From assembly GCA_022340745.1 (NCBI GenBank), contig JAJDNL010000133.1, forward strand, positions 5,315 to 69,314: a stretch of 64,000 bases of DNA. Direction: 5' to 3'. Under the pieces are notes generated by a model. The model was not told the origin of the DNA. It worked only from the letters and a program-made list of their open reading frames with translations, and did no database searches. The DNA comes from Deltaproteobacteria bacterium (GTDB taxonomy: Bacteria; Desulfobacterota; Syntrophobacteria; BM002). The position numbers and the translations under genes were made by a program. Each line of letters opens with the position of its first letter. The stretch's first letter is position 1. This document shows positions 10,876 to 45,918 of the stretch, in pieces.

Positions 10876-11040
10876 TTCAACATTGAAAACCTGGTCCTTA
10901 GAGCCAGGTCAGAGTTCAATGGCTTTGCCAGCAAAAGAGGTTTCAGTTTTCAGTTTTTTGTTTTTCTTTCCTGACACCTGACACCCGACACCTGACACCC
11001 TGAGTTTGGGTCCTTTGAGTCCGGATTCTTTACTAACTGC
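10876..11040 (+). repeat. REP-like dispersed element, family TTCGAAAACCTGGTCC..CCTGACACCTGACACC..CCGGATTCTTTACT (copy 1)
   Basis: ttcaacattgaaaacctggtccttagagccaggtcagagttcaatggctttgccagcaaaagaggtttcagt...cctgacacctgacacccgacacctgacaccctgag...ccggattctttact. It contains a CTGGTCC/GGACCAG-type hairpin. Seven copies in this window, all in the same orientation. Confidence 0.7.
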
Positions 11041-11053
11041 CAAGCTGTCCACA

Positions 11054-12700
11054 TTAGTTGTCAAATTTTGCGGCGATTGGCATTCTCCTACCCATTCCAA
11101 AGGCCTTGGAGGTAACCTTCAGTCCCGGAACTGCTTGCCTGCGCTTGTACTCGTTTCGGTCCACTGTTTGAATTACCCATTTGACTGTTTCAGGGTCGAA
11201 ATTGTGTTGGAGAAGGTCAGCCATGGAGTAATGCTCGTCCACGTAGTAGTGCAGAATTTCGTCCAGCACCTCATAGGGTGGGAGGGTGTCCTGATCGGTT
11301 TGATTTTCTCTCAATTCCGCTGAGGGCGATTTATTGACAATCTCCTCCGGAATTATGGTGGAGTCTCGATTTATGTACCGCGCCAGTTCGTACACCATTG
11401 TTTTGGGGACATCGGCAATAACACTCAGCCCGCCGCTCATATCGCCATACAAGGTGCAATAGCCAACTGCAAGTTCGCTCTTGTTGCCAGTGGAAAGCAC
11501 CAGATGGCCAAATTTGTTTGAAAGTGCCATGAGGATGTTGCCTCGAATCCTAGCCTGAAAGTTCTCTTCGGTGATGTCAGGTTCTCTCCCCTTGAAATGG
11601 TCCTGGAGGGACTTCATATAAGCCTCGTAGGCAGGAGAAATTGGTATGACTTCGAACCTGATAGCAAGGTTCTCCGCCAGCTTCCTCGAATCTTCGATGC
11701 TACCCGTTGAAGAGTAAGGTCCAGGCATGGTGACTGCGACAACGTTTTTAGCTCCAATTGCCTCTATGGCTATACAACAGGTCACCGCAGAGTCAATGCC
11801 GCCGGAGAGGCCAACAAGAGCCGAGGTGAAACCACATTTTCGCATGTAGTCCCGAACGCCCAAAACAAGCGCCTGATAAACACTTGCAATCTCTTCTTGG
11901 GGGACATACGAGTCTGGGATACCATCACGGTCCACAGAAATTGTCTGCACGTGCTCCTCGAAGGGAGGAAAAACCACAAAAGGATCACCCGCCCCATCTA
12001 CACCTACACTCCTGCCGTCAAAGATTAGCTCGTCGTTAGCACCCACCTGGTTAATGAAAAGAAATGGAATGCGGTGCTTGGTTGCATGGCTCCGGACAAT
12101 GTTGTATCTCAGCGTTTCTTTGCCTCGATAGAAAGGGGAAGCAGCAATATTAATAATCAGGTTCGCACCCTTTTCGGCCAGAACCTCGATAGGATCATAG
12201 GAATACGTGGGCAGGTGCCATAGGGCCGGGTCATTCCAGGCATCTTCACAGATGGATATTCCCAGGATCTTGTCCTTGAATTGTACTACCGGATCCTCCG
12301 TAGCTGGGTCAAAGTACCTAGGTTCGTCAAAAACGTCATAAGTAGGCAGCAGGGATTTGTGCTGAGTAAAGAGGATTCGGCCTTGATAAAGCAGCAGCGC
12401 TGAATTGTGTAGGCCTTTGCCGGTGGATTGCTGCCCAGGTTGAGGAGCGCCCACAATGATGCCCGTATGCGGGTACTTCTGCGAAACCTCAGAGAGCTCT
12501 CGGATTGCCTCGTTCGTCCTGGCGATAAAAGAAGGTCTCTCCAGGAGGTCCCTGGGTGGATAGCCGACGAGAAAGAGTTCCGGGAAAACAACCAGGTCGG
12601 GAGAGTCCTTCCTGCACTGTGATAGCGTCTGCGTTACCTTGGCCACATTGCCGCAAATATCGCCAACGGTCGGATTCAGTTGTGCCAGTGTAATTTTCAT
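11054..12700 (-). CDS. nadE: glutamine-dependent NAD+ synthetase (N-terminal nitrilase/CN-hydrolase domain plus NAD synthetase domain)
   Basis: MKITLAQLNP.. typical start (upstream ATG at 12721 also possible). PP-loop LVGLSGGIDSAV. Confidence 0.85.
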   Translation of the reverse strand: MKITLAQLNPTVGDICGNVAKVTQTLSQCRKDSPDLVVFPELFLVGYPPRDLLERPSFIARTNEAIRELSEVSQKYPHTGIIVGAPQPGQQSTGKGLHNSALLLYQGRILFTQHKSLLPTYDVFDEPRYFDPATEDPVVQFKDKILGISICEDAWNDPALWHLPTYSYDPIEVLAEKGANLIINIAASPFYRGKETLRYNIVRSHATKHRIPFLFINQVGANDELIFDGRSVGVDGAGDPFVVFPPFEEHVQTISVDRDGIPDSYVPQEEIASVYQALVLGVRDYMRKCGFTSALVGLSGGIDSAVTCCIAIEAIGAKNVVAVTMPGPYSSTGSIEDSRKLAENLAIRFEVIPISPAYEAYMKSLQDHFKGREPDITEENFQARIRGNILMALSNKFGHLVLSTGNKSELAVGYCTLYGDMSGGLSVIADVPKTMVYELARYINRDSTIIPEEIVNKSPSAELRENQTDQDTLPPYEVLDEILHYYVDEHYSMADLLQHNFDPETVKWVIQTVDRNEYKRRQAVPGLKVTSKAFGMGRRMPIAAKFDN

Positions 12701-12731
12701 TTTATTAGTCCACCCATGCAACCATTATTAC

Positions 12732-13340
12732 CTAATAACCAGATTCTTTGCCGGTCATACTTTCTATTTCAACCTTTATGATAACGGTGCTTTTCACGGC
12801 AGGCTCATCATATTCAAAAGATCTGCCTGCATAATGCTGCATAATTGCATCGAGTCCTTTTTTCTTCTCTTGGAGATTGTCAACCAGTGAACCCTTACCA
12901 AATGCTATAACACTGCGGTATTTCATGCCCCACTTGCACGGATTGTCGTCCTGAATGACCTTTTGGTCCAGGTCGAATTGAAGCTCCCTGCAGCAAGCTG
13001 CAAGGAATCTTCGACTGTAAGGAATTAGTCTATTTTATAAAGTTCGCTCGCTAACCCCGCAGCCCCGGCGACGGGATTTCCGCTCCGCTCCAACAAGCTG
13101 CGGGGAATGCGCTCGCTGGTTCAGTTCAACACAGACGTTGGGATTGTGTTGGAGTATCTCTAATTTCAAACCGTCGCCTGCGGAGTGAAAATAAAGCGTA
13201 TTATTGCTGTAAGCAAAACAGAGAGGAACAACATAGGGTTGATCATTTCTAGACATACCCAGACGACAAACCAATGAGTTGCCGATAACCTCTTCAATCA
13301 AGGCAGTATCGGCAATTTCTCTATCTTTCCTACGCATCAA
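12732..13340 (-). pseudogene. pyridoxamine 5'-phosphate oxidase-family (PNPOx-like FMN-binding) gene interrupted by an in-frame 141-nt repeat element carrying a TAA stop
   Basis: ORFs 13035..13340 (MMRRKDREIADTALIEEV..NPNVCVELNQ) and 12732..12926 (..KYRSVIAFGKGSLVDN..) are in the same frame. They are separated by 47 codons, including TAA at 13037..13035, that exactly span the repeat element. Deleting 12975..13115 gives ..NPNVCVELNQ|DLDQKVIQDDNPCKWGMKYRSVIAFGKG.., a normal PNPOx core. Confidence 0.6.
12975..13118 (+). mobile_element. ~140 bp two-hairpin intergenic element, copy A (MITE-like or structured RNA; inserted in PNPOx gene)
   Basis: gaattgaagct-CCCTGCAGcaagCTGCAAGG-gaatcttcga..gttcgctcgctaa-CCCCGCAGC..GCTGCGGGG-aatgcgctcgctg. 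Copies at 16228..16373 and 24223..24350 share the flanks. The hairpin stems differ between copies with compensatory changes. Confidence 0.65.
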
Positions 13341-13343
13341 CTC

Positions 13344-14345
13344 CTACCTCCCCAAATCCACAATCACTCTCCCTTTCTGCTTTCCAGCCAGGATGCGATC
13401 TATTTCGGAGTCCAGCTCTTCTAAGGAGCACACGGAAGTCTGCCTATCCAGGTTGTCCAGTTTCCACTCACTGGCAATTTTTTCCCATGTTCGGCGCCGA
13501 AAGGTCATTGGAAAGCTCTGGGAATCAATGCCCACAAGAGAGATACCCCTCAAGATGAAGGGATAGACGTTAATATGCAAGTCAGGCGATGCCACATTGC
13601 CGCAGCAGGTAACCGCGCCGTGGAGTTTGGTGGATCTGATGGCTGTTGATAGGATCTCACCCCCTACCGCGTCTACTACCCCAGCCCAACGGCCTTTCAA
13701 AAGGGGCTTTCCCGAGGTGTCTGTCGCCTCAGCTCTGGAGATGACTTCTTTGGCGCCAAGATCGACAAGAAACTGCTTCTCATCCATCTTTCCGGTTACT
13801 GCAATCACTTGATAGCCTATTCTGGCAAGCATTGCCACGGCAAAACTCCCAACTCCACCGGTGGCTCCTGTAACCAATATCTCTCCCTGATCGGGAGTGA
13901 TGCCATGCTCTTGGAGCTTAAAGATGCAAAATCCGGCCGTAAGACCGGCTGAACCATATGCCATGCTTTCTTTTGGTGAGAGATTCTCCGGAAGCGGCAC
14001 CACCCAACCGGCCGGTACTCTAATGTATTGTCCAAAACCACCTGGGGTGTTCATACCAAGATCATAACTGGTGACAATTACCTGGTCCCCAGGCTGAAAC
14101 GCTTCACTATGGCTTTCTTCTACAACACCGGCGGCATCTACTCCCGGCGTGTGTGGATAATGCTTGGTGACCCCCCTGTGACCAGTGGCTGAAAGTCCGT
14201 CTTTGTAATTTAGTGATGAATAGTGAACCCGGATCAATACTTCACCTGCTGGCAAATCATCCAGTGATTTCTCGGCAATCCGCCTGGTATATGTGCCAGC
14301 CGCTGTTTCTTGCACTACCATGGCTTTGAAAGGTTTACTGTCCAT
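13344..14345 (-). CDS. YhdH/YhfP-family MDR quinone oxidoreductase (AcuI-like)
   Basis: 333 aa. ..GEVLIRVHYSSLNYKDGLS.. and a GG..G Rossmann motif, typical of the YhdH family. Confidence 0.75.
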   Translation of the reverse strand: MDSKPFKAMVVQETAAGTYTRRIAEKSLDDLPAGEVLIRVHYSSLNYKDGLSATGHRGVTKHYPHTPGVDAAGVVEESHSEAFQPGDQVIVTSYDLGMNTPGGFGQYIRVPAGWVVPLPENLSPKESMAYGSAGLTAGFCIFKLQEHGITPDQGEILVTGATGGVGSFAVAMLARIGYQVIAVTGKMDEKQFLVDLGAKEVISRAEATDTSGKPLLKGRWAGVVDAVGGEILSTAIRSTKLHGAVTCCGNVASPDLHINVYPFILRGISLVGIDSQSFPMTFRRRTWEKIASEWKLDNLDRQTSVCSLEELDSEIDRILAGKQKGRVIVDLGR

Positions 14346-14700: not shown

Positions 14701-15801
14701 CTAAGGTTTTAGCAGAATTTTTCCGAATAACCCTTTTCCGGTGAGCATCTTTGTGTGGGCTTCTGCTGCCTCTTCAAAGGGATACACTGAGTCAATTGCA
14801 GCCTTTATCTTCCCCTGAGACATCCAGTAGAATCCCTGTTCTACCTCTGCCTTTGTGCCCTGACTTGAGCCAAGGATGTTGGTTCCTTTGAAGAAGATAT
14901 GTCTTAGGTCTGCTTTGGCATCGTAGCCTGTGGTGGCGCCGCATTGAACCAGGGTTCCGCCATATTTGAGCAGAGTAAGCTGCTTGTTGAAGTGGGTCTC
15001 GCCGATGTGATCAAAAGATACATCGATTCCCGGAGATACCCCAGTCTTTTGAGAGATTTCCTTGGACAAACCCCGGACTTCCTTGTGCCAGTCATCCTTC
15101 CTATGATCCACGGCGTAATCGGCACCAAGTTCGAGACATCTGTCTAGTTTATCAGGACTCGCTGTTGCAATCACCGTACAGTTGTAGAGTTTCGCAATCT
15201 GGATTCCAAAGCTACCAACACCGGAACCCCCTCCCATTACCAGTACGGTTTGTCCTGGTTTAATCTTGGCCCTGCCTACAAGCATGTGCCAGGAAGTGAG
15301 CAGGGTCATTGAGGCTGCCGCCGCCTCATCGAAGCTGACGTTATCTGGAATCTTGATGACGTTTACTTCCGGAAGATGGGTAATCTCCGAAAACCCACCC
15401 CACAGGGGGCCGGTCTCGAAACCCCAGATCGTCCGCTTATTACAGTCATACTCACGACCGTCAGTACAGGCAGAACAAACTCGGCATGACATATTAGAGT
15501 GGGATACAACTCTGTCCCCAACGTTGATTCTGGCTACATCCTCCCCCACGGCGATTACTTCACCGGCTGCATCAGAGCCTGAAATGTGGGGCAACGGGAC
15601 CGGTATGGGAGTTCCTCTCATTCCCCAAATATCGTTGTAATTCAATGCAGCTGCTTTGACTTGAAAAACTACCTCGTTTGGTTTTGGTTTTGGATCGTCT
15701 ACATCTTTTACCTGCAAGATGCGCTTAAAATCATCATCCGGAGCATACTCTTCGTAAACCACAGCTTTCATCTGTGCTTCTCCTTTCTTTGTTTCATTCA
15801 A
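14701..15801 (-). CDS. zinc-binding MDR-superfamily dehydrogenase / enoyl reductase (crotonyl-CoA reductase-like)
   Basis: 366 aa. ..AAALNYNDIWGMRG.. and GGGSGVGS nucleotide-binding motif. Probable true start MKAVVYEEY (15771). Confidence 0.65.
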   Translation of the reverse strand: MNETKKGEAQMKAVVYEEYAPDDDFKRILQVKDVDDPKPKPNEVVFQVKAAALNYNDIWGMRGTPIPVPLPHISGSDAAGEVIAVGEDVARINVGDRVVSHSNMSCRVCSACTDGREYDCNKRTIWGFETGPLWGGFSEITHLPEVNVIKIPDNVSFDEAAAASMTLLTSWHMLVGRAKIKPGQTVLVMGGGSGVGSFGIQIAKLYNCTVIATASPDKLDRCLELGADYAVDHRKDDWHKEVRGLSKEISQKTGVSPGIDVSFDHIGETHFNKQLTLLKYGGTLVQCGATTGYDAKADLRHIFFKGTNILGSSQGTKAEVEQGFYWMSQGKIKAAIDSVYPFEEAAEAHTKMLTGKGLFGKILLKP

Positions 15802-15872
15802 AATCAGAAATTTATTCCTCAGGGCCAGTCCACGATCCCGCCCTGCGGGGGTCAGAGTTCAATGGCCTCGAG
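15797..15872 (+). repeat. REP-like element (copy 2, partial) overlapping start codon of the MDR gene
   Basis: ttcattcaaaatcagaaatttattcctcagggccagtccacgatcccgccctgcgggggtcagagttcaatggc. Confidence 0.55.
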
Positions 15873-16227
15873 GGTAAAGATTGCGACCTGTTCTGGAGCA
15901 CTGGAGCACGTATGATTTATGATTGCAGATTGAGGTGTATGCACTCTTCTCCGGTTGGTCTAAAGCTTTTAAATCTAAAATCTGCATTCTAAAATCTAAA
16001 ATCACTGAACTCCATGACTCTAGCAGATTTCCGCAAGCGGGGGAAGAGCATTCAAGCTCCCTCCTTGATACGCCATAGTCACGCCCTAGCCTGACGACTG
16101 CGGTAGGGGCCAGCCCCAAGGCTTTCCCTTTGTGCCGGATTCTTTACTAATCTATGCACCAATACGTTTTCATATCCTTGCAAGGAAGTATGAAAACTGG
16201 CATGATTACAGCCTATATGAGGATACA

Positions 16228-16373
16228 AATTGAAGCTTTCTGCAGTCCCGCTACAGCGGGACAGGGAATCTTCGAAAGGTAAGGAAGTGATTCCATTTTA
16301 TTGTAGCTCGCTCGCTAACCCCGTCCGCCTCCGGCGGACTACGGGGAATACGCTCGCTGTAGCATTTTCAAAT
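16228..16373 (+). repeat. two-hairpin element copy B, 28 nt upstream of UbiA-family gene
   Basis: aattgaagctttc-TGCAG-TCCCGCTacAGCGGGA-caggg-aatcttcgaaaggtaaggaagtgattccattttattgtagctcgctcgctaa-CCCCGTCCGCCtccGGCGGACtACGGGG-aatacgctcgctgtagcattttcaaa. The ORF track 16230 start is read-through of this element. Confidence 0.65.
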
Positions 16374-16400: not shown

Positions 16401-17303
16401 ATGAGTAATACCCTGAGAGCGGTGATATTTGGCCCCATGCGTTTACCCTTTCTCATCCTGACTCCGGCATGTGTAATGCTGGGTGCAGCCACCGCAGCTT
16501 GGTCAGGATCTGAACTCAAGCTGTATTATCTTGCTCTTACATTTGCCGGTGCGTTGGCGGCCCACATAAGCGTTAATGCCCTGAATGAGTACGATGATTG
16601 TAAAAGTGGTCTTGATTTCAATACCCAACGCACTCCCTTCAGCGGCGGCAGCGGCACCCTGCCCCAGAGCCCTGACAAGGCCCATGTAGCACTGATTACC
16701 GGTCTCTGCAGCCTGGTTGTCACGGCTATTGTGGGCCTGTACTTTCTCTCTATCCGGGGACTGTGGCTTTTACCCGTGGGCCTTGTCGGCCTGGTGATTA
16801 TAGTTGTCTATACAAAGTGGATTACCAAAAACGCCGTTTTCTGTTTAGTAGCGCCCGGGCTTGGTTTTGGCCCCTTGATGGTAATGGGAACTGACTTCGC
16901 TTTAAGTGGTTCCTATTCGTGGACCTCATTTGTAGCTTCCCTGGTTCCATTTTTCCTAGTGAGTAATTTATTGCTACTCAACCAGTTTCCAGATGTGGAA
17001 GCGGATAGAGGGGTGGGCAGGCACCATTTCCCCATCGCCATCGGCAGAGAGGCCAGTGTAAGATTATACGTGTTATTCCTTGCAGGTGCCTATCTGGCGG
17101 TTATCTTCGGTTATATAAGCGGCTGCCTTCCGCTGGCAGGCTTCTTGGCCCTTGGCTCACTTATCATTGCCGTTCCTACTGTCAAGGGTATCGCCAGGTT
17201 CGCAGAAGATATGGACAGCCTGATACCCTATATGGGCAGGAATGTCGTAGTAATCATTTTGACGCCGGTGTTGCTTGCTATTGGTCTCTTTATTTCGTCT
17301 TAG
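16401..17303 (+). CDS. UbiA-family prenyltransferase (MenA/UbiA-like, menaquinone-type)
   Basis: N..NEYDDCKSGLD Asp-rich motif, about 8 TM helices. SD AAGGAG before ATG 16401. Confidence 0.75.
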   Translation: MSNTLRAVIFGPMRLPFLILTPACVMLGAATAAWSGSELKLYYLALTFAGALAAHISVNALNEYDDCKSGLDFNTQRTPFSGGSGTLPQSPDKAHVALITGLCSLVVTAIVGLYFLSIRGLWLLPVGLVGLVIIVVYTKWITKNAVFCLVAPGLGFGPLMVMGTDFALSGSYSWTSFVASLVPFFLVSNLLLLNQFPDVEADRGVGRHHFPIAIGREASVRLYVLFLAGAYLAVIFGYISGCLPLAGFLALGSLIIAVPTVKGIARFAEDMDSLIPYMGRNVVVIILTPVLLAIGLFISS

Positions 17304-17365
17304 AAAACCTTGTCCTCAGGGCGAGACTAAATCGCATAGAGCATGGCGCATAGAGCATAGCGCAC
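17299..17365 (+). repeat. REP-like element (copy 3, short variant)
   Basis: tcttagaaaaccttgtcctcagggcgagactaaatcgcatagagcatggcgcatagagcatagcgcac. Confidence 0.5.
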
Positions 17366-17427
17366 AAATCCAGGGATTCGTGACATTGAAACTTTTTTGC
17401 TTTGCGCTCTGCGCCAAGCGCTTTGCT

Positions 17428-19126: not shown

Positions 19127-19216
19127 AGTTACTCCCCTTTCTTCAGATGAAATAGTAGGGCCTGCATACTCACCGAGATATCTATGCAAAAATTATCCCA
19201 AAACAAGGTCTACTCA

Positions 19217-19330
19217 ACTTCGAAAACCTGGTCATTGGAGCCAAGTCAAAGCTCCCTGGTTTTGCCGGCAGAAGAGGTTTCAGCTCCTATGTTTCTTTTG
19301 CCTGACACCTGACACCTAAAACCCTGGGAT
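19217..19330 (+). repeat. REP-like element (copy 4)
   Basis: cttcgaaaacctggtcattggagccaagtcaaagctccctggttttgccggcagaagaggtttcagctcctatgtttcttttgcctgacacctgacacctaaaaccctggg. Confidence 0.65.
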
Positions 19331-19390
19331 TTCAGACGGGAGGAGAGGTTCAGCTTGGAAAACCTGGGACAAGGATGCAGGTGTAGCAAT

Positions 19391-20226: not shown

Positions 20227-20733
20227 TCACCGAGATTTATCGTTCTCTTGAAAGGTGATTCCTCTGATGATGCTGTCTTTGGCAACCTTGAAGGTAGAAG
20301 AGAACTCCAGCACCGGTCTTTCAGCTTCATTGTAAACAGTTGCCTGCCCTTGCAGTATTCTTCCTTCTTGTTGCAGGACTTTTGCTCTGGCGGTAACGAC
20401 CCCTTGTTTGACAGGATAAAGAAATTTTGACTCCAGAGCAATTGTGGCAAAGTGAGTTTGAACCGGAGCCAAACTCTTGATGGCCATGACAACCGCGGTG
20501 TCGGCCAGGCTAATCAGAGCACCACCGTGCAAGAGCCCGGCTCCTTGAGCGAGGTCGATAAGAAAAGGCATGGTCAAGGTGGCCCGACCGTCAGAGGCTT
20601 CGACGATCTCCATGTGCAACAATCGCTCAAAGGGCGCACAACTAATCCAGCCGTCCATATCAAATTTATGTGGGCCAGTGTATCGATCCATGGCTACAAT
20701 CCTCTCCTCCGTGGCATCCTGGTTATTCAACAT
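20227..20733 (-). CDS. PaaI-family hotdog-fold thioesterase
   Basis: 168 aa. ..LLHGGALISLADTAVVMA.. is a 4HBT/PaaI signature. Confidence 0.75.
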   Translation of the reverse strand: MLNNQDATEERIVAMDRYTGPHKFDMDGWISCAPFERLLHMEIVEASDGRATLTMPFLIDLAQGAGLLHGGALISLADTAVVMAIKSLAPVQTHFATIALESKFLYPVKQGVVTARAKVLQQEGRILQGQATVYNEAERPVLEFSSTFKVAKDSIIRGITFQENDKSR

Positions 20734-20900
20734 CGAAAATCTGGTCCATAGGACCAGTCCACGATCCCGCCTTGCGGAGATCAGAGTTCAATGACTTTGC
20801 CGGCAGAAGAGGTTTCAGTGTTCTTGTTTTTCTTCCCTGAGACCTGACACCCGACACCTGAAACCCTGAAATTTGGGTCCGGATTTTTTACTCTCCCACT
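20727..20900 (+). repeat. REP-like element (copy 5, full length) overlapping PaaI start codon
   Basis: ttcaacatcgaaaatCTGGTCCatAGGACCAGtccacgatcccgccttgcggagatcagagttcaatgactttgccggcagaagaggtttcagt..ccctgagacctgacacccgacacctgaaaccctgaaatttgggtccggattttttact. Confidence 0.7.
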
Positions 20901-23940: not shown

Positions 23941-24000
23941 TTTCGTCTTGAAAACCTGGTCCTCAGGGCCAGTCCAGAGCACAAAGAGCATAGCGTAAAA
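23941..24000 (+). repeat. REP-like element (copy 6, short)
   Basis: tttcgtcttgaaaacctggtcctcagggccagtccagagcacaaagagcatagcgtaaaa. Confidence 0.55.
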
Positions 24001-24222
24001 ATACAGGGAGCTTTGGCATTGACAGTTTTTCGCTTTGCGCAAAAAATACAAGAGTACTGGAGTGAACCCGAGACTATTGTGCACATTTGGGGGCACGGGG
24101 ACAAGGGGGTATTGAGTCAGGCAAGCAACCTTTTAGGAGAGCTTGAGTAAAGTGATTGTACTCCACAGATCTGCTCGAGACTTGGAAATATGATTGTGTT
24201 GTGGTAGATTCACCCGTTCGCG

Positions 24223-24350
24223 AATTGAAGCTCCCTGCAGCAAGCTGCAGGGAATCTTCGAAATGTAAGGAAGTGGTTCCATTTTGTTGTAGTTCGCTCG
24301 CTAACCCCGCAGCAAGCTACGGGGAATACGCTCGCTAGAGCATTTTCAAA
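24223..24350 (+). repeat. two-hairpin element copy C, 50 nt upstream of cNMP-binding gene
   Basis: aattgaagct-CCCTGCAGcaagCTGCAGGG-aatcttcgaaatgtaaggaagtggttccattttgttgtagttcgctcgctaa-CCCCGcagcaagctaCGGGG-aatacgctcgctagagcattttcaaa. Confidence 0.65.
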
Positions 24351-24400
24351 GGCTGAGGCGACCATTTTGCAGGGCACCAAGGGATGTACGAGGAGAAGTT

Positions 24401-45616: not shown

Positions 45617-45712
45617 GCAGTTACCTAGACTTTTGTCTTGCCTCCTGCCGGACTTTTCTGTGCACTTCTAACAGAAAACGGATGACAAATGCCAGCATTA
45701 ATTTGTATTCAA

Positions 45713-45860
45713 TTATAGAAAACGAGGTCCTAAGGACCAAGTCAATATTCAGTGGGTTTGCTTGTGAAGATGGCGTACGGCTGAAGGTTTCAGTGCTCAG
45801 TGTTCAGGTTTCAGTTTCTCTGCCGCTTTTTCCTGACACCTGACACCTGACACCTTTCCC
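45713..45860 (+). repeat. REP-like element (copy 7)
   Basis: tagaaaacgaGGTCCtaaGGACCaagtcaatattcagtgggtttgc...ggtttcagt..cctgacacctgacacctgacacc. Confidence 0.6.
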
Positions 45861-45918
45861 TATGCTCTATGCCCAATCTCACATCACACATCAAAACATA
45901 GCTCTTGAGAGGTGACTC

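Follow-up and report, generated by a model that had tools for sequence, protein, structure and literature searches.

The DNA analysed here, referred to as the window, is a 64,000-nt stretch from the assembly of a Deltaproteobacteria bacterium (Desulfobacterota; Syntrophobacteria; BM002; GCA_022340745.1, contig JAJDNL010000133.1, positions 5,315 to 69,314 of the forward strand). On its minus strand lies a gene of the PNPOx/Pyridox_ox_2 (NimA-like) type whose reading frame is interrupted by a 147-nt element with two hairpins, and the window holds exactly three copies of this element, all on the minus strand. The gene stands between a quinone-oxidoreductase-like gene (13344-14345) on one side and nadE (11054-12721) on the other, and the order oxidoreductase-PNPOx-NadE is conserved in L002-L007, the loci of the closest orthologues. 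Taken together, the precise ends, fold and flanks of the element suggest that it is probably a non-autonomous relative of the IS200/IS605 insertion sequences.

The interrupted PNPOx gene and its empty site

The frame that runs from 13340 to 12732 opens as a PNPOx-like N-terminus, passes through 49 foreign codons including a TAA, and closes as a PNPOx-like C-terminus. The split into two same-frame open reading frames (ORFs; 13035-13340 and 12732-12926, minus strand) and the in-frame stop had been recognised in the original prediction, made from the sequence alone, and both stand. With the 147 nt removed, the repaired protein has 152 aa, reads ..NPNVCVE|FDLDQKV.. and aligns without gaps to orthologue P0001 at 94% identity. 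It matches PF12900 (Pyridox_ox_2) over residues 13-150 (profile positions 4-139 of 140, E=5e-23) and the NimA-like structure PDB 2fg9 (E=4.5e-31). A search of 5.8 billion proteins returned 1126 relatives, and 152 aa is the length of nearly all of the best 120 of them. More than 100 orthologues in synteny share this length and have VCVE|FDLDQ at the junction. Aligned with 13 relatives, the window sequence shows a single extra block of 49 residues between ..NPNVCVE and FDLDQ... The contiguous protein of normal length that had been predicted is hence recovered, but its junction reads VCVE|FDLDQ rather than VELNQ|DLDQ.

At the DNA level, the orthologues (L001, L002) read GTCGAA|TTCGAC where the window reads GTTGAA|147 nt|TTCGAC; the empty-site comparison proposed with the original prediction has thus been made, and natively there are no extra codons. 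Orthologue alignments move the boundaries from 12975-13115 (141 nt, 47 codons), as first given, to 12978-13124 (147 nt, 49 codons), with a 2-nt AA/TT ambiguity at the junction; the corrected length is still a multiple of three. Comparison with the empty site reveals no target-site duplication at the PNPOx junctions, where one had been suspected.

A second empty site was found by chance in holA. In a Desulfobacteraceae metagenome-assembled genome (MAG; RPRI01000306.1, L072 1407-1523), the filled site reads GATGAA|117 nt|TCTCCC, as against GAAGAA|TCTTCC at the empty site of an orthologue in L134, and here too the comparison shows no target-site duplication. This copy is in frame and stop-free and adds 39 residues (PKQRAHSP...CGGELQ) to a low-complexity linker of DNA polymerase III delta, the protein with the element (P0121) having 530 aa as compared with 490-492 aa in its orthologues. 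The element has therefore been gained precisely and without target duplication at two independent sites, which also confirm that the target motif derives from the target DNA and not from the element. At both, the T at -4 that completes TGAA is confined to the lineage carrying the insertion: window position 13128 (minus-strand -4) shows a synonymous change from GTC to GTT relative to all close orthologues, yielding TGAA beside the insertion, and holA shows GAA to GAT in the same pattern. This would fit a requirement for TGAA.

The insertion point in the PNPOx gene falls between the nearly invariant E71 and the invariant F72 of a conserved NVCVEFD motif. The earlier placement in a loop finds no support in this; an AlphaFold model of an orthologue puts the site in a strand, at a confidence (pLDDT 53) too low to settle the secondary structure there. 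No ATG, GTG or TTG stands in frame in the interval from the TAA to the native FDLDQ. Re-initiation of the C-terminal half at ATG 12926, which had been considered, would yield a 64-aa ORF without the first 17 native residues of that half. The simplest reading of these sequences is a mobile-element hit that probably truncated the protein, because of the in-frame TAA of the element, and left the gene inactivated as a pseudogene; the event would be fairly recent and the gene dispensable. That a recent insertion had made a pseudogene was one of the two options raised originally, and the empty site in orthologues, the stop and the lack of a start codon before FDLDQ all favour it.

The broken allele is not restricted to one assembly. 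Five contigs, assembled separately from ENA and JGI samples (ERZ27251468, ERZ27251469, JGI 3300057015, 3300031665 and 3300057054), code for the exact truncated product, 100 aa long; they are 97.7-100% identical to the window over gene and insert and keep the TAA in 5/5 cases. Since these metagenome contigs are independent of one another, an assembly error does not account for the allele. One of them, L128 2251-2859 (JGI 3300057015), differs at 14 positions; these fall without exception in the C-terminal half, the N-terminal half and the element being unchanged, and most are changes toward residues found in orthologues. This suggests that the variant may reflect recombination, with a breakpoint near the insertion, rather than decay. 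JGI metagenome contigs yielded no joined GTTGAA|TTCGAC allele, such as would precede insertion or follow excision. The gene disruption itself is ordinary, and annotation pipelines will call it as two small ORFs.

A conserved family of structured elements

More useful than the broken gene is the element itself, which is structured, highly conserved, canonically about 114 nt long, and spread across Desulfobacterota, Nitrospirota, Fibrobacterota and other phyla. The earlier observation that the intervening DNA is a two-hairpin repeat present twice more in the window holds, with cmsearch scores of 116.6, 117 and 64 bits for the three copies (Table 1). Its core 16-mer, CGGGGTTAGCGAGCGA, matches at least 113 loci in species-representative genomes, nearly all of those listed carrying the full element, and a 22-mer from its right end matches at least 120 metagenome loci, with 99 full copies among those listed. 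In all, the family is present at more than 200 loci, and complete genomes with many copies include CP070843.1 and OY761459.1. The hosts include Desulfobacterales, Syntrophobacterales, Syntrophales, Desulfobulbaceae, Nitrospirota, Nitrospinota, Fibrobacterota, Chitinivibrionales and Gemmatimonadales, among others.

We describe the element on its TTGAA...TTCAA strand, which in the window is the minus strand. From the 5' side, the flank TTGA is followed by the 5' arm of a helix, P1 (4-5 nt starting from the last flank A), then by AGCGAGCGC, ATT, hairpin 1, TTA and GCGAGCGAAT; after an A-rich variable stretch come CCTTA, the P1 3' arm, C, GAAG, ATT, hairpin 2, two nucleotides, CTTC, AA and the flank, which usually begins with T. 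GAAG and CTTC are the arms of a second helix, P3a. The two hairpins are paralogous (ATTCCCYGNNGCTTGCNNCRGGG) and in direct orientation on the same strand, both covary, and terminal inverted repeats are lacking. At least ten complementary versions of P1 exist, among them AAATG/CATTT, ACTG/CAGT, ACCG/CGGT, ATCC/GGAT, ATTG/CAAT, AACG/CGTT, AGTG/CACT, ATCCC/GGGAT and ATAGC/GCTAT. In an alignment of 108 copies to a covariance model built with this structure, 92.5% of cells are paired, compared with 82.5% in shuffles and 36-54% with slid partners, 20 of 29 pairs change on both sides, and none of 500 shuffles reaches any observed measure; these numbers are somewhat inflated by fitting the alignment to the structure, although the P1 variants are visible in the raw sequences. 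The P1 pairs themselves are of the types CG52/AU17, CG37/UA35 and GC66/CG6. U-G pairs are abundant at two positions (37 and 21 sequences) on one strand only, and the TTGAA..TCAA strand is therefore the folding strand. When the PNPOx copy is folded thermodynamically, both hairpins and P3a reappear, but the short P1 does not.

The extra length of the PNPOx copy is due to a 31-nt module, TTGGAGCGGAGCGGAAATCCCGYNNNCGGGG (window 13063-13093), nested in the tip of hairpin 1. The same module recurs in 10 copies from other genomes, where it sits in the GCTTGC tips of hairpin 1 or hairpin 2 (L033, L049, L051, L062, L066, L088), and other tips hold 16-nt GC hairpins such as TCCCGCTTCAGCGGGA. Such tip modules could have arisen by nested mini-insertion or by replacement of the tip. 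Across copies, lengths leave remainders of 0, 1 and 2 on division by three in 41, 21 and 24 cases, a skew that arises because the 114- and 138-nt subfamilies dominate. Family lengths are thus not constrained to multiples of three, and the in-frame 147 nt of the PNPOx copy is best explained as chance, all the more so because this copy contains a stop, which would make conservation of the frame useless. After in-silico excision, an open frame of at least 150 nt extends on both sides in 15% of copies, as opposed to 68% of positions drawn at random from those loci. Hence the great majority of copies lie between genes, and selection acts against insertion into genes. The other option raised originally, a selected in-frame element, fits neither the lengths nor this depletion nor the stop.

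Incomplete and compound forms are common. One-hairpin derivatives are frequent, occur in several subfamilies and are of two kinds, one of about 55 nt, in which the two hairpins are fused, and one of about 75 nt, in which hairpin 1 is deleted between AGCGAGCG direct repeats; they may be deletion relics. Copies with the left end only or the right end only are truncated or deletion derivatives. In a Nitrospiria MAG (L107 1396-1747), three copies stand head to tail with shared junctions (..GCTTAA|ATCCAGG..), as expected if the element's own end resembles the target motif. Many MAG contigs end inside the element, as would be anticipated of a multicopy repeat. Unannotated copies are also present on plasmids of Candidatus Manganitrophus (Nitrospirota), where they sit between a TMEM165/GDT1 gene and a TPR gene, with no transposase close to the element; six matches in viral contigs were uninformative.

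Rfam yielded nothing relevant, either on the whole window at the gathering threshold or on the insert at E<=10. None of the papers searched in full text contains the core strings of the element, and neither this family nor an insertion sequence (IS) that targets TTGAA emerged from the other literature searches. As far as these searches show, the family is undescribed. Its copies fragment MAG assemblies, go without annotation between genes and now and then lengthen a protein, as with the 39 residues gained by HolA.

Table 1. Coordinates of the interrupted gene, the inserted element and related features (window positions unless a locus or accession is given)
Feature	Position	Strand	Basis or remark
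Disrupted PNPOx/Pyridox_ox_2 (NimA-like) gene	12732..13337	minus	ATG 13337, native stop 12732-12734; PF12900 match, orthologue alignment, synteny
Native codons 1-71 (..NPNVCVE)	13125..13337	minus	orthologue alignments, DNA and protein
Target motif TTGAA kept in left flank (transposon-adjacent motif)	13125..13129	minus	orthologues have TCGAA
Inserted 147-nt element (top strand = window minus strand)	12978..13124, up to 12980-13126 by 2-nt ambiguity	minus	empty site L001, L002; cmsearch 116.6 bits, E=4e-25
P1 5' strand ACTG (last A of target motif + first 3 nt of element)	13122..13125	minus	covariation
Putative left guide CATT (element +16 to +19, directly 5' of hairpin 1 foot)	13106..13109	minus	IS608 rule (PMC5934647, PMC3201880)
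Hairpin 1 (CCCCGCAGC...GCTGCGGGG), tip with 31-nt nested module 13063-13093	13055..13105	minus	covariation, folding
In-frame TAA stop in A-rich middle of element	13035..13037	minus	reading of frame
P1 3' strand CAGT	13014..13017	minus	covariation
Putative right guide GATT, directly 5' of hairpin 2 foot	13006..13009	minus	its G is the last base of the P3a GAAG arm (13009-13012)
Hairpin 2 (CCTTGCAGC TT GCTGCAGGG)	12986..13005	minus	covariation, folding
Last four element bases TCAA (transposon-encoded motif)	12978..12981	minus	P3a 3' arm CTTC = 12980-12983
Native codons 72-152 plus stop (FDLDQKV..GKESGY*)	12732..12977	minus	alignments
Copy 1 (PNPOx)	cmsearch span 12972-13132	minus	116.6 bits
Copy 2, 137 nt, intergenic; both hairpin tips swapped for other small GC hairpins	16230..16366 (cmsearch 16224-16373)	minus	64 bits
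Copy 3, 120 nt, intergenic, canonical form	24225..24344 (cmsearch 24219-24351)	minus	117 bits
One-hairpin derivatives	L068 23-75, L090 6575-6625, L014 421-484, L028 6222-6263; L147, L164, L176, L181, L208, L225, L233, L244		
Unannotated copies on Candidatus Manganitrophus plasmids (PLSDB)	CP114554.1 27764-27868, CP114557.1 17602-17706, CP114562.1 52780-52884		
Second repeat family (GAAAACCTGGTCCTNAGGGCCAG...)	10877-11010, 15796-15864, 17303-17407, 19214-19334, 20725-20876, 23950-24040, 45710-45872		

Target, putative guides and the probable mode of movement

Motifs were counted in about 165-175 usable, that is correctly anchored, copies. TGAA lies 5' of the element in 146 of about 165, and 99 of these 146 also have T at -5; the element ends in TCAA in 154 of 174, and the base at +1 is T in 143 of 175, while the positions beyond the target and end motifs are random sequence. 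Directly 5' of the foot of hairpin 1, CATT is found in 121 of 148 copies. In the PNPOx copy, 19 nt separate the left junction from the foot of hairpin 1 and 8 nt separate hairpin 2 from the right end; across the family, the spacing from TGAA to AGCGAGCG is 6-8 nt.

These features can be set beside IS608, in which, as described in the structural literature, the fourth guide base pairs with the fourth base of the site. IS608 is cut 3' of TTAC, 19 nt 5' of its left hairpin, and 3' of TCAA, 10 nt 3' of its right hairpin, and these sites are read by the 4-nt guides AAAG and GAAT just 5' of the hairpin feet (PMC3201880, PMC5934647). Pairing at the left end is crossed: the first base of the guide pairs with the second of the site, and the second of the guide with the first of the site (PMC5934647). 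There is a +1 preference, TTAC|C for IS608 and TTGAT|G for ISDra2, and IS608 transposition leaves no duplication (PMC3201880, PMC5934647). In our family, the putative guides CATT and GATT are complementary to TGAA and TCAA, respectively, under the same rule. The three pairs (two as published, and 4:4 as general background) are canonical at both ends, in motifs that are nearly invariant, and the G/C difference between TGAA and TCAA is mirrored by C/G in the guides. The rare variants GATA/TCAT, in a Nitrospira subgroup, and TATT/TAAA, in L079 and L044, keep the pairing.

Because of the TGAA flank, the 19-nt spacing, the two same-strand hairpins, the TCAA end, the +1 T and the CATT/GATT guide pairing, we read the insert as a non-autonomous element of the IS200/IS605 type, a palindrome-associated transposable element (PATE), moved in trans and inserted between PNPOx codons 71 and 72, with the gene inactivated and the length a matter of chance. 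We put the probability of this reading as a whole at roughly two in three; membership in IS200/IS605 is well supported rather than demonstrated, with no transposase found around the ~250 sampled copies. In a peel-and-paste scheme, a Y1 (HUH) transposase supplied in trans would bind both hairpins on the top strand and cut after TGAA and after TCAA; a single-stranded circle would be released and the donor resealed, and the circle would insert after another TGAA in single-stranded DNA. In PNPOx the element entered 3' of TTGAA and 5' of T, without duplicating the target. The covarying helix P1, specific to this family and stacked beside P3a, would hold the two junctions together. We infer the enzyme, the single-stranded intermediate and the role of P1. 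If the reading is right, the target TTGAA|T and the guide logic can be read from sequence and could point to the cognate TnpA, possibly also to a TnpB with a TTGAA motif, in uncultured sediment bacteria, and the extra end-joining helix would be a testable addition to the peel-and-paste model.

Several observations weigh against the IS200/IS605 interpretation. When every ORF of 60 aa or more from the window and the loci was searched by phmmer with IS608 TnpA (query checked against PDB 2a6m; E<=10), no Y1 transposase was detected in about 1.5 Mb around some 250 copies, nor in the window. Among these ~250 sampled loci there was also no full-length parent with the same ends. ORF clustering around the 113 listed genome loci gave only housekeeping families, with no recurrent neighbour family. 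P1 and the canonical GAAG/CTTC helix lie outside the described IS608 mechanism; they would bring the cleavage sites together, but might just as well serve an RNA function, for instance as an omega-RNA-like scaffold. In 9 of 148 copies, CTAA replaces CATT, extending hairpin 1 to a perfect palindrome and breaking the guide rule, and the near-constancy of the target and guide motifs leaves little power for testing their covariation. The frequent one-hairpin forms are odd if both hairpins are needed. Orientation shows no clear bias relative to neighbouring genes (48% on the same strand), which is a weak proxy for replication direction; local GC skew follows gene orientation and gives no replication direction.

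Among the alternatives, the element might primarily be a structured RNA gene that happens to be mobile, for example an omega-RNA-like scaffold ending at the right boundary, its 3' flank guiding a TnpB-type nuclease whose gene lies elsewhere. In keeping with this would be the strong covariation, which extends to a long-range helix beyond the IS608 DNA mechanism, and the one-strand G-U pairs, and the size range of omega-RNA scaffolds takes in ~114 nt; furthermore, PATEs often encode omega-RNAs according to Meers et al. (PMC10055086). However, single-stranded DNA hairpins would give equal covariation, no Rfam family matches the insert even at E<=10, co-orientation with upstream genes is no more than 58%, and looking for a tnpB-like partner met with no success. 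We regard a primary role as an RNA gene as unlikely; it is compatible with mobilisation by TnpA, and the covariation of P1, P3a and the hairpins would in that case reflect RNA function and not recognition by a transposase. A classical MITE (a miniature transposable element with inverted repeats), moved by a DDE transposase, with a 2-bp AA target duplication hidden in the junction ambiguity, is very improbable. The AA ambiguity at the PNPOx junction would indeed permit a 145-nt element flanked by AA..AA, and TTGAA and TTCAA are reverse complements, but apart from the TTGAA contributed by the flank the element lacks terminal inverted repeats, neither empty site shows a duplication, the hairpins are direct rather than inverted, and the first bases of the element differ between subfamilies where the flank is conserved. 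The guide complementarity and the 19-nt spacing would then also have to be coincidences. The original remark that the repeat is unusual for a simple MITE holds in that it lacks terminal inverted repeats and duplication and resembles IS200/IS605 elements, but not in the sense intended, which was its length as a multiple of three.

A tolerated or functional in-frame insert, with PNPOx still working through intron-like removal from the RNA or through expression and assembly of the two halves, seems to us highly improbable. The allele occurs in at least four samples, neither half having acquired a further frameshift or nonsense mutation, P1 and P3a would draw the junctions together, and the sister copy in holA is read through in frame; yet all five alleles have the TAA and there is no in-frame start before FDLDQ, the site lies inside a conserved motif, Rfam gives no similarity to any ribozyme or intron family, and the depletion of copies from coding sequence would be unexpected with clean splicing. 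That a repeat was misplaced inside the gene during sequencing or assembly is hardly credible: the element exists in many copies, and MAG contigs often break there, but the exact 100-aa product and the junctions recur on the five separately assembled ENA and JGI contigs. Somewhat further afield, and very improbable, are a self-organising single-strand element in which P1 stacked on P3a joins the junctions and which is moved by an enzyme other than a classical TnpA, or else an element that doubles as a trans-acting guide-RNA gene or is even removed from transcripts; any of these would explain both the absence of a parent among ~250 copies and a broken PNPOx allele without further decay. Judged against general knowledge of those systems, readings as an integron attC site, an IS91 element, an IS110 bridge RNA or a group I/II intron were dropped, as the core motifs, the size or the insertion pattern do not fit.

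The window also contains a second intergenic repeat family (GAAAACCTGGTCCTNAGGGCCAG...; Table 1), sometimes with a second hairpin and usually followed by heptamer runs such as CTGACAC. Kinship of this family (GAAAACCTGGTCC...) with the element was considered on account of TTGAA/TTCAAT ends; these were seen in one copy only, and the two are treated as unrelated.

Comparison with known systems

The closest likeness is to PATEs, the IS200/IS605 derivatives whose paradigms are IS608 and ISDra2. In both, the element goes in 3' of a motif of 4-5 nt that the left flank retains, target duplication and terminal inverted repeats are lacking, one strand carries two subterminal hairpins, 19 nt separate the left cleavage site (here the left junction) from the hairpin foot, TCAA forms the right end a few nucleotides 3' of hairpin 2, and a base preference exists at +1; the tetranucleotides just 5' of the hairpin feet, guides in IS608 and putative guides here, can be paired by a crossed rule. 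Unlike PATEs, this family is without a cognate TnpA or full-length parent in the ~250 sampled loci. It has a covarying P1 that links its 5' terminus to the stretch upstream of the putative right guide, and its canonical GAAG/CTTC helix takes in part of the terminal motif. Nested modules in the hairpin tips and a distribution over several phyla with high sequence conservation set it further apart.

Repetitive extragenic palindromes (REPs) and bacterial interspersed mosaic elements (BIMEs), with their REP-associated tyrosine transposases (RAYTs), are likewise short GC-rich intergenic hairpin repeats in high copy number, with the transposase gene outside the repeat, and are presumably handled, as this element would be, by a Y1 enzyme in trans. 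A REP, however, consists of one hairpin with a conserved tetranucleotide on its 5' side, and REPs often come as inverted pairs, whereas the present element is a direct two-hairpin unit with defined ends and demonstrable precise insertions, and no flanking RAYT was seen.

Rickettsia palindromic elements (RPEs) are palindromic repeats of ~100-150 nt found in frame inside protein genes, to which the holA copy in L072, with its 39 stop-free residues, bears a resemblance. As holA is essential in model bacteria, this case shows survivorship, in that only an in-frame, stop-free copy in a low-complexity linker is seen, and in this it parallels the RPEs. By contrast, the PNPOx copy has a stop (5/5 alleles) and breaks its gene, this family is overwhelmingly intergenic, and there is no apparent sequence relationship, the sequences not having been compared directly.

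Classical MITEs such as Correia, ERIC and Nezha are also small, non-coding, multicopy and occasionally gene-disrupting. In contrast to them, this family has neither terminal inverted repeats nor a target-site duplication, and it inserts in a strand-specific manner next to a fixed motif.

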